Below, piece after piece: positions 2,194 through 3,666 of a stretch of 32,000 nt of DNA. The translations under genes and the position numbers were made by a program. The notes under the pieces are model-generated. The model made no database searches and had not been told where the DNA came from. It saw only the letters and a list, made by a program, of their open reading frames with translations. Source of the stretch: Candidatus Heimdallarchaeota archaeon (GTDB lineage: Archaea; Asgardarchaeota; Heimdallarchaeia; Heimdallarchaeales; Heimdallarchaeaceae); contig DAOVER010000003.1 of NCBI GenBank assembly GCA_030668875.1, positions 30,001-62,000 of the forward strand. Direction: 5' to 3'. Every line of letters starts with the position of its first letter. The stretch's first letter is position 1.

Positions 2194-3666
2194 TCATAAG
2201 CATCTATCTACAGCTGAAGAACCCTTTTCATCATATTCTACTTTCGTTACCCAGAGGTTTCTTTCATTGAAAAGTTTCAAAGAAGCAAGAATTGAACCCC
2301 CTATCCAACTTTTGATTAATCTGTTTCTATCAGCTTTAACCTTAATTTCTATATGATTTGGAAGTTTGCTTCTAATATCTGAATAGAATCTTTCCTTGAA
2401 ACCTCTATATAATGTGCCTCCACCAATTAGAACAATATTTGATAAAACAACTTTAAGTAAATCTGAATCGCATTTCTGAGCAGATTCTATTACGGCATCA
2501 GTTAGATCTCCAAGTTCTCCTGTTACACTTAAAGGTTCATTTCGGAATAGTATTTCAGGTGCTTTATACAAAATTTCTTCATATTTTACGAAATCGTTAT
2601 TGATGATATTTGCAGACCTTATCTGTCTATCTGTTTTCTGCCAAATCTGTTTTTCTTTCTTTGGGTTTTCAGAAACATAGCACAATTCTTCAGTAGCATA
2701 TCGAATGTTGCTATCTATGATACTTTTTTGATTTGGGGTGCTTTTAGAATGAGCGATATGTTTGTTAGTATAGTCTTTCATCAATCTAGTAACATCATTT
2801 GCTCCTGTATCTCGAATACTAACACTGTGAGTAATTAACCAACCATCGTAAATGGGAAGGATTCTAGTTGCTGAAGCCCCAATATTTACGATTAATCCTG
2901 TTACATTTCCATCAGCATAAAGAGACAATAACTCTTTTATCGCAAAATACATCTTGGAAACGTTAAATTGGTCAAAAAGAACTCTAGCAATTTTCCTTCT
3001 AATTACCTTTGTTTGGTCATAAACTCCAACATAATCAAGCGCTTCTTCCTCACGAAGAATATTTTTTGCTTTTTCAGGTAACGTAGAATTGTTTATCACA
3101 TCCTTTTTTCCTTTAAGGGAATCAACATATTTGTCCATTTGTGGTCTCTCAAGAATCAGTATTGCTATCTTCGAAGGGTCTACTTCCATTTTCTCGAAGA
3201 TATGACTAAAGAAAATCTCAAGATGTTTAAGGTCTATTTTCTCTTCAATAATGTCTGTATCAAGATAAATAGAAACTTTTTTGATAATTTTCTTCTTTGC
3301 TTTAATATTTGAATGTTGAATAAATGTATCTCCTTCTGCAGAATAAAATATTGTAGATTCAAAGATGTACCTCGGTTGATTTTCTCCTGCGAACCCTACT
3401 TTGGTGAAGCTTGATCCTAAGTCAATTACCATAATTGTTGGGTTCTTTATTTTTTCAACCAATTGGACATTCTCTTCTAGAATCTTTAGACCTCTCTGTA
3501 ATTTCATAAGATCAGTATTTTTCAAGAACTTCGAACATTGTTCACAATAATAACCAATTGTGATCCACTTGCGTTGTTCTGTTCCCTTCCTTATATAGAC
3601 TCTTTGCATAGCTTTTCCACAATGTTTTGGTCTGGTTTTTTGCAGTTTTTCTGGCACTTTTTCCAC
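2194..3666 (-). CDS. Divergent actin-family (actin-related) protein with an N-terminal Zn-binding extension
   Basis: Collinear actin motifs: VIDLGSSFTKVGFAGENQPR, LSLYADGNVTG, PIYDG, EELCYV, KAPEILF, KCDSDL, NIVLIGGGTLYRG and WIGGSILASL...WVTKVEYDEKGSSAVDRCL. Confidence 0.9.
   Translation of the reverse strand: MEKVPEKLQKTRPKHCGKAMQRVYIRKGTEQRKWITIGYYCEQCSKFLKNTDLMKLQRGLKILEENVQLVEKIKNPTIMVIDLGSSFTKVGFAGENQPRYIFESTIFYSAEGDTFIQHSNIKAKKKIIKKVSIYLDTDIIEEKIDLKHLEIFFSHIFEKMEVDPSKIAILILERPQMDKYVDSLKGKKDVINNSTLPEKAKNILREEEALDYVGVYDQTKVIRRKIARVLFDQFNVSKMYFAIKELLSLYADGNVTGLIVNIGASATRILPIYDGWLITHSVSIRDTGANDVTRLMKDYTNKHIAHSKSTPNQKSIIDSNIRYATEELCYVSENPKKEKQIWQKTDRQIRSANIINNDFVKYEEILYKAPEILFRNEPLSVTGELGDLTDAVIESAQKCDSDLLKVVLSNIVLIGGGTLYRGFKERFYSDIRSKLPNHIEIKVKADRNRLIKSWIGGSILASLKLFNERNLWVTKVEYDEKGSSAVDRCL

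Follow-up and report, generated by a model that had tools for sequence, protein, structure and literature searches.

A gene on the minus strand of the window, by which we mean the whole analysed stretch of 32,000 nucleotides from a Candidatus Heimdallarchaeota archaeon (contig DAOVER010000003.1, positions 30,001 to 62,000), encodes a zinc ribbon fused to the N-terminus of an actin-family protein, and an array of three palindromic GRTATAYC boxes precedes it. As judged from sequence, the fusion is real. The ribbon is both conserved and mobile, the triple array is tied to the gene and the actin body combines a diverged hydrolysis site with an insertion, and for these reasons we consider it rather likely that the actin fold here serves as the basis of a DNA-binding protein that regulates its own gene as a one-component system. 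The wider proposal, that an actin duplicate in Heimdallarchaeia captured an archaeal zinc ribbon together with its operator and became a sequence-specific transcription regulator, has in our judgement a little better than an even chance of being correct. Behind this lies the question of how actin came to act on DNA in eukaryotes (nuclear actin and the actin-related proteins Arp4–9). Asgard actins are treated as cytoskeletal or left uncharacterised in the accessible parts of the literature on them. With the protein and a candidate binding site at one locus, a DNA-directed role of an Asgard actin becomes directly testable.

The initial annotation had described an extension of 77 residues at 3436–3666. 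These coordinates are right: the plus strand over the interval is closed by stop codons, and the segment is the 5′ end of a minus-strand open reading frame (ORF). The metal-ligand candidates also lie where they had been placed, with His15 at 3622–3624, Cys16 at 3619–3621, Cys41 at 3544–3546 and Cys44 at 3535–3537. The extension as such stands, but its length needs correction, since the true start is probably GTG 3657 (Val4), which would leave about 74 residues; orthologues carry ATG at this position and are 487 amino acids long. Orthologue lengths are mostly 483–490 amino acids, with the start at the position of GTG 3657 and behind a GGTGG element that, from its geometry, we take to be Shine–Dalgarno-like. 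The description as rich in basic and aromatic residues is borne out for residues 13–44, which include seven Lys or Arg and four aromatic residues against two Asp or Glu. The amphipathic helix that was said to lead into the actin fold is indeed drawn by AlphaFold, at residues 50–64, but with a predicted local distance difference test (pLDDT) value below 50 at residues 57–64 and within the least conserved part of the protein.

Pro13, His15, Cys16, Met20, Cys41 and Cys44 are conserved in all 20 genome loci. Mean column conservation is highest in the ribbon (0.81 for residues 13–44), intermediate in the actin body (0.63) and lowest in the linker (0.49). The HC and CxxC pairs are present in 44 of the 45 family proteins that could be judged (43 by script and P0237 by eye), the sole exception being the fragment P0233, which has HG in place of HC; three further proteins of the 48, annotated from Met20, could not be judged, and the N-terminally cut fragments P0030 and P0037 were left out. 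Those three database entries would suit an extension that is a mis-called or non-functional leader. Pairwise codon comparison of residues 13–18 over the 20 loci gives 324 synonymous against 72 non-synonymous differences, and this synonymous excess shows that the region before Met20 is translated. The ribbon is moreover the most conserved region, and it is found in every one of the 20 genomes that have the paralog. A spurious leader, refuted by the codon conservation, is thus barely credible. The initial annotation had also allowed for a true start downstream, at Met54 or Met79, and for ligands that vary among orthologues. Neither methionine is conserved and the ligands are, so that starts at Met20, Met54 and Met79 are all ruled out, the first by the codon bias upstream of it.

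In the AlphaFold model the ribbon adopts a zinc-ribbon hairpin (pLDDT 80.3). Among short homologous proteins the first knuckle reads HC, CC or CxxC and the second CxxC is constant, an alternation expected of interchangeable metal ligands. Together with the model, this exchange makes metal binding well supported by inference. The extension matches no Pfam family at cut-off, and for the ribbon of the window no Pfam, NCBIfam or PHROG family was found at cut-off or at E < 0.001 (best PHROG E 0.0011). The N-terminal domain has no match to any helix-turn-helix family. Foldseek searches of the ribbon against the PDB and BFVD gave no match at an E value of 0.001, and all leads from the Atlas scored below 0.9.

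The nearest solved folds are zf-GRF domains, ribbons that bind nucleic acid, which lends slight weight to DNA binding although the match is weak (Z 3.6, root-mean-square deviation 3.8, 46 aligned residues). Those of Ape2, NEIL3 and ZCCHC4 rank first, second and fourth (Z 3.6, 3.0 and 2.8), which would suit a ribbon that binds single-stranded DNA or RNA unspecifically as a tether like those of nuclear actin-related proteins, the boxes being read by something else. The N-terminus of yeast Arp8, which binds linker DNA according to the accessible text of PMC6098158, would be a parallel. The Z values are low, however, the ribbon has no zf-GRF match in Pfam and the link between ribbon genes and palindromes described below would be left unexplained, which makes unspecific binding very unlikely. 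The initial annotation had proposed a metal-binding module that tethers the actin fold to nucleic acid or to a partner protein. The metal-binding part holds by inference, none of our analyses supports the partner option, and the nucleic-acid option is favoured in a narrower form, as sequence-specific binding of double-stranded DNA at the GRTATAYC boxes of the gene's own promoter.

A profile search for the ribbon over 1.84 billion representatives, a check of the kind that the initial annotation had proposed for finding stand-alone homologues or other fusions, recovered both. Its 104 matches comprise five actin fusions, one other fusion, 81 short proteins of 36–218 amino acids and 17 repeat matches that were set aside (16 long repeat proteins, left uninspected, and the short repeat P0221). 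The family to which the ribbon of the window belongs has no name and counts 81 short representatives; Zn_ribbon_GRF_2 matches 4 of 57 homologues, with a best E value of 0.004. Stand-alone ribbon genes are present in other Asgard lineages and in two other phyla, with 5 of 401 genomes in the one reached via a Nitrososphaeraceae record and 30 of 401 in the one reached via a Methanosarcina record. In the second fusion (P0129, P0224 and P0239) the ribbon is joined to an unrelated domain and shares 81% identity with that of P0237, a deep member of the family. Among 32 matches of P0224 the same N-terminal slot holds sigma-70 in six and a Cass2 effector domain in two, so that the ribbon occupies the place that a DNA-binding domain takes in relatives. 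The partner domain of P0129, P0224 and P0239 has no Pfam match and is weakly BtrH/C39-like in the Atlas (0.86–0.87).

A search for longer ribbon-bearing proteins returned actin fusions in 41 of 41 cases and missed the known second fusion, and is therefore incomplete. P0227, an isoleucyl-tRNA synthetase that shared a cluster with P0154, was inspected, proved to lack a ribbon and was discarded as a clustering artefact. Scans of viral contigs gave no confirmed relative of the ribbon, and the phage collection a single match at E 0.3. Two adjacent ribbon genes (L186/L048, G214:C31:20958-24140) lie with five GRTATAYC boxes in 1.6 kb and small uncharacterised genes around them, in a region that looks like an integrated element. 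The stand-alone ribbon P0131 of Ca. Njordarchaeum guaymaensis (L046/L196, G284:C190) stands among small ORFs in a run that resembles a provirus, and two boxes follow shortly downstream of it.

The initial annotation recognised the fusion but missed the three palindromes upstream of it (Table 1). They precede an element, TTTAATAA, which we take from its position to be an archaeal TATA box. GRTATAYC as such occurs at chance level in this genome (249 observed, about 241 expected). Clusters of boxes are found at two places, the array of the fusion gene, which is the sole intergenic one, and a coding repeat of His and Asp. The latter lies in the gene of a membrane protein (DHDIS units; G000:C34:4305-5069, minus strand) before a band-7-like gene. 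Similar pairs found in relatives likewise turned out to be coding repeats or intragenic, and all of these were rejected.

Two to five boxes stand upstream of the fusion gene in all 20 loci. In the genus of this archaeon (g1) there are three boxes spaced by 18 and 16 bp in 16 of 17 loci and two in the remaining one (L019). In the two loci of the sister genus (g2) there are four or five, the upstream gene is a different one and one box touches the start codon; the locus of the other family has two. Both metagenome orthologues also have boxes upstream. The flanking genes, of the ApbA family and a divergent DUF1015 gene, are housekeeping genes. In nine of nine evaluable loci in which the actin gene is missing or located elsewhere, no box precedes the DUF1015 gene (L273 ends too early to judge). 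ApbA and DUF1015 directly abut in three genomes of the genus, where the actin gene is gone. Because the boxes follow the actin gene and not DUF1015, vanishing or moving with the former, we assign them to the fusion gene and rule out that they form part of the DUF1015 promoter. G034 has an internal deletion of the actin gene that leaves the three boxes and a short C-terminal remnant (L272, G034:C159:4915-6800); the related G033 has lost the entire cassette. Upstream of gyrB there is a strong single box, but of ten other genomes just the two closest share it, and accordingly no wider regulon was found. The gyrB upstream regions (L352–L361) also share, in 10 of 11 cases, an ACCAAT a few bases before the TATA-like box and a conserved leader.

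Stand-alone ribbon genes offer a view of what the ribbon may recognise. In Asgard genomes, 7 of 16 have related palindromes upstream (16 sites, 2.6 expected); examples are L054 with three GGTATACC, L190 with three CGTATAC, and L047 and L187 with two TGTATACA. This discovery set suggested a GTATAC core and is thus no independent test of it. In a held-out set from two other phyla (40 loci less two near-duplicates, the remaining 38 partly related), GTATAC ranks first of the 64 palindromic hexamers, with 8 occurrences against 1.8 expected and none of 300 shuffles reaching 8. It lies upstream of 7 of the 38 ribbon loci and of 4 of 88 control genes, a modest effect (Fisher P 0.017).

Several observations weigh against recognition of the boxes by the ribbon. 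Nine of the 16 Asgard stand-alone ribbon genes have no palindrome, and 31 of the 38 held-out ones no GTATAC. The held-out loci are not all independent, the match at L203 is coding (P becomes 0.042 without it) and the full 8-mer is not significant in this set (2 against 0.6 expected, P 0.12). The fold matches of the ribbon are within the range of common arrangements. Tandem GATATATC boxes also precede PadR-like genes of bacteria, in at least 22 among at least 118 triple-box stretches found in a scan of GTDB; at least 15 of these stretches belong to the present actin family, at least 68 are tandem repeats and at least 13 are other. Finally, the PadR-like protein L175 of this genome has orthologues of 43–64% identity in all four genomes tested.

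The last two points would be explained if the boxes were the operator of a regulator acting in trans, most likely of the PadR family, and the ribbon served the regulated actin paralog as a structural part or for binding a protein. PadR-like loci number 11 in the genome, and boxes that travel with a gene are also expected of a target. Triple GATATATC boxes with 16–18 bp spacing stand directly before PadR-like genes in many bacteria (L059, L062, L064, L072, L073, L078, L079 and 15 more); no paper on GATATATC as a PadR operator was found in the literature searched. What speaks for a different reader at the fusion gene is the form and place of the sites. PadR-linked boxes are GATATATC in 66 of 66 cases among the matches listed, a strict tandem operator, whereas 29 of 45 actin-linked boxes are asymmetric (GATATACC or GGTATATC) and the gene downstream is not a PadR gene. 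No box cluster occurs at any of the 11 PadR loci of this genome, and in four other genomes 1 of 25 such loci has a single box within 400 nt. The regulon of a PadR protein would consist of one gene, and the GTATAC palindromes before stand-alone ribbon genes would have no explanation. Control in trans is therefore unlikely in our view, though it carries real weight.

The body belongs to the actin family by both profile and fold. Residues 78–488 match Pfam Actin PF00022 with an E value of 1.1e-59 (202.6 bits, curated cut-off 27), the full model has a pLDDT of 85.3 and Foldseek relates it to actin at E 4e-31. Structural ranking puts actin first (Z 37.8, root-mean-square deviation 2.4, 337 aligned residues), followed by Arp3, Arp4 (Z 32.3), crenactin, Arp8 (27.0 and 23.7) and MreB, with ParM chains behind at 19.3 or less. 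The best sequence match of known structure is PDB entry 9wc4, named 'HC1 actin' (E 1e-71). Residues were mapped onto actin through P0097 in 32 family rows. Of the phosphate-1 loop, Asp82 and Gly84 are kept in 32 of 32 rows and Lys89 in 31, and the adenosine residues Glu326, Gly415 and Gly416 are kept in all. The residues that we take to serve hydrolysis in actin, Gln137, His161 and the phosphate-2 motif DxGDG, have diverged: the catalytic Gln is found in one row, the His in one (Arg in 31) and the first Asp of phosphate 2 in none. We infer that the body binds nucleotide without actin-type hydrolysis. Glu245, beside the Gln position, is new and invariant and Arg268 is near-invariant, so that a different chemistry at the pocket is possible. 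The insertion of 41 residues and the rebuilt subdomain 2 argue against a two-stranded filament, and a normal filament is probably not formed.

These features bear on whether the locus might be a compact ParMRC-like device, with the boxes as a centromere-like anchor, the ribbon in place of a ParR adaptor and the protein nucleating or capping its own or an Asgard-actin filament on the chromosome, autoregulation being a side effect. An actin gene does lie beside a repeat array, the genome encodes two ordinary Asgard actins, and DNA-bound nucleators of actin-like filaments are described in the accessible text of PMC12050087. Such a device would have to make do with three boxes at a fixed distance from the TATA-like box and with a protein that has lost its catalytic residues, has a rebuilt subdomain-2 region and carries the 41-residue insertion. 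Close relatives have lost the gene by clean deletion, two single-contig genomes of the family yielded no copy, and the fold is far nearer to actin than to ParM. We regard a segregation device as quite unlikely.

For a self-regulating DNA-binding protein, the following arrangement can be pictured. The zinc ribbon would bind GRTATAYC with one protomer per half-site, up to three dimers would sit just upstream of the TATA box and the bound dimers would set transcription of the fusion gene itself. Homodimer prediction gave a score of 0.00, which is evidence neither for nor against a dimer. More speculatively, the actin body could be a sensor or assembly module without a normal ATP-driven filament; by binding nucleotide, or by contacting the two ordinary Asgard actins or their regulators, it might couple its state to promoter occupancy. 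Activator sites commonly lie upstream of a promoter and repressor sites near the start. The sign of control is ambivalent in this respect, as the g1 boxes lie upstream of the TATA-like box (activator-like) and the g2 boxes reach the start codon (repressor-like).

Of 399 genomes in the phylum, 20 have strong ribbon matches; besides the present one they comprise 16 of 23 of its genus, both of the sister genus and one of another family. Searching 82 genomes of the class with the actin body alone gave E < 1e-30 in the same 20, hence no ribbon-less form of the paralog was found there. Thirty-eight relatives with at least 40% identity are among the 120 matches listed, and those that carry a name belong to Ca. 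Heimdallarchaeota or Heimdallarchaeaceae; one fragment found later is labelled Thorarchaeota. The fusion is only 30–33% identical to the ordinary Asgard actins. A quick tree of 50 rows places 17 family members together on one side of a branch (Shimodaira–Hasegawa-like approximate likelihood-ratio support 90) outside nine conserved Asgard actins; the tree is midpoint-rooted, without nuclear actin-related proteins or an MreB root, and leaves the deep forks and the place of the family relative to Asgard and eukaryotic actin unsettled. Since the fusion is limited to a few genera, a parallel invention is probable and not an ancestor of the nuclear actin-related proteins. Elsewhere in the class, in a different family, a further divergent actin (L312, G060:C66:89800-92800, an open frame of 463 amino acids) begins with an extension that is unrelated to the ribbon and contains a CPKC knuckle followed later by a Cys; it is possibly a second, independent metal-finger fusion.

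The architecture is thus real and lineage-limited, and apparently undescribed: no account of the fusion or its boxes was found in the literature outside subscription papers and supplements, and the supplementary actin lists of PMC9834061 and PMC13734099 may hold these proteins. That neither of the two single-contig genomes of the family yielded the paralog may explain why it has been overlooked. If our reading is true, the protein would tie the nucleotide or cytoskeletal state of the cell straight to a promoter and so provide, among the closest relatives of eukaryotes, a prokaryotic counterpart of nuclear actin and the actin-related proteins. The small archaeal zinc ribbons, a widespread family, would then also have a site with a GTATAC core assigned to them.

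Table 1. Features of the zinc-ribbon/actin locus, in window positions.
Feature	Position	Strand	Remarks
ORF of the zinc-ribbon/actin fusion	2194–3666	minus	490 aa if read from GTG 3666, but probably 487 aa, with the start at GTG 3657
Putative Shine–Dalgarno-like GGTGG, then likely start GTG 3657–3655	3655–3667	minus	Inferred
Zinc ribbon, residues 13–44	3535–3630	minus	His15-Cys16 and Cys41-x-x-Cys44 with a basic/aromatic β-hairpin between; from conservation and model
Variable linker, residues 45–76	3439–3534	minus	Low-confidence helix; from model and conservation
Actin fold, residues 78–490	2194–3435	minus	Phosphate-1 and adenosine residues kept; catalytic Gln/His and phosphate-2 Asp replaced; subdomain-2 region rebuilt
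Family-specific helical insertion of 41 residues, about residues 180–220	3007–3129	minus	Within the actin fold
Palindromic box 1	3748–3755		GRTATAYC; GATATACC on the gene's strand; ATG...CAT flanks
Palindromic box 2	3730–3737		GRTATAYC; GATATATC; 18 bp from box 1
Palindromic box 3	3714–3721		GRTATAYC; GATATACC; 16 bp from box 2, about 10 bp before the TATA-like box
TATA-like element	3696–3703	minus	TTTAATAA; TTA core invariant in 13 of 13 aligned upstream regions

Elsewhere in the window, a small membrane protein (5192–5560, minus strand) has a C-terminal zinc ribbon, PF13240 (E 3e-6), that is not of the family of the fusion's ribbon. Three ORFs with GDG.VGKT-type motifs (23183–24365, plus strand, and 31492–31941, minus strand) resemble small GTPases, and an ORF with a YVRVS motif (10648–11397, plus strand), with no obvious element around it, resembles a serine recombinase.

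Among known systems, the closest in design to what we propose are the ROK repressors (Mlc, NagC and XylR), in which an N-terminal DNA-binding domain is carried by an actin/hexokinase-superfamily fold that serves as the sensor. Theirs is a winged helix on the sugar-kinase branch, whereas the fusion has a zinc-ribbon β-hairpin on a true actin-family PF00022 domain. In ParM/ParR/parC an actin-superfamily gene has a repeat array in its own promoter region, and the repeat array beside the actin gene is the trait in common. The fusion differs in being a single polypeptide with no adaptor gene alongside, in its ApbA and DUF1015 neighbours, in a fold that is not ParM-like and in the loss of catalytic residues. 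With zf-GRF and other zinc ribbons it shares two metal knuckles joined by a long β-hairpin.

Lokiactin and other ordinary Asgard actins share the actin fold and differ from the fusion, which has an N-terminal ribbon, the 41-residue insertion, an altered hydrolysis site and its own palindrome array and forms a separate clade in the quick tree. Patchy, lineage-limited actin paralogs beside a conserved Lokiactin are described in the accessible text of PMC9834061. The nuclear actin-related proteins Arp4 and Arp8 share the actin fold with insertions, and the proposed DNA-binding N-terminus would resemble that of Arp8 (PMC6098158), an analogy for which we do not claim homology; both are monomeric according to the available part of PMC6167448. 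Asgard clusters with INO80 actin-related proteins are mentioned in one line of the accessible text of PMC13734099, where the members are not given. In the structural ranking the fusion comes nearer to actin than to Arp4 or Arp8, and its extension differs in being a zinc ribbon for which a specific site can be proposed. By the features compared, the fusion is a member of the actin family that is not Lokiactin, ParM, ROK or zf-GRF.

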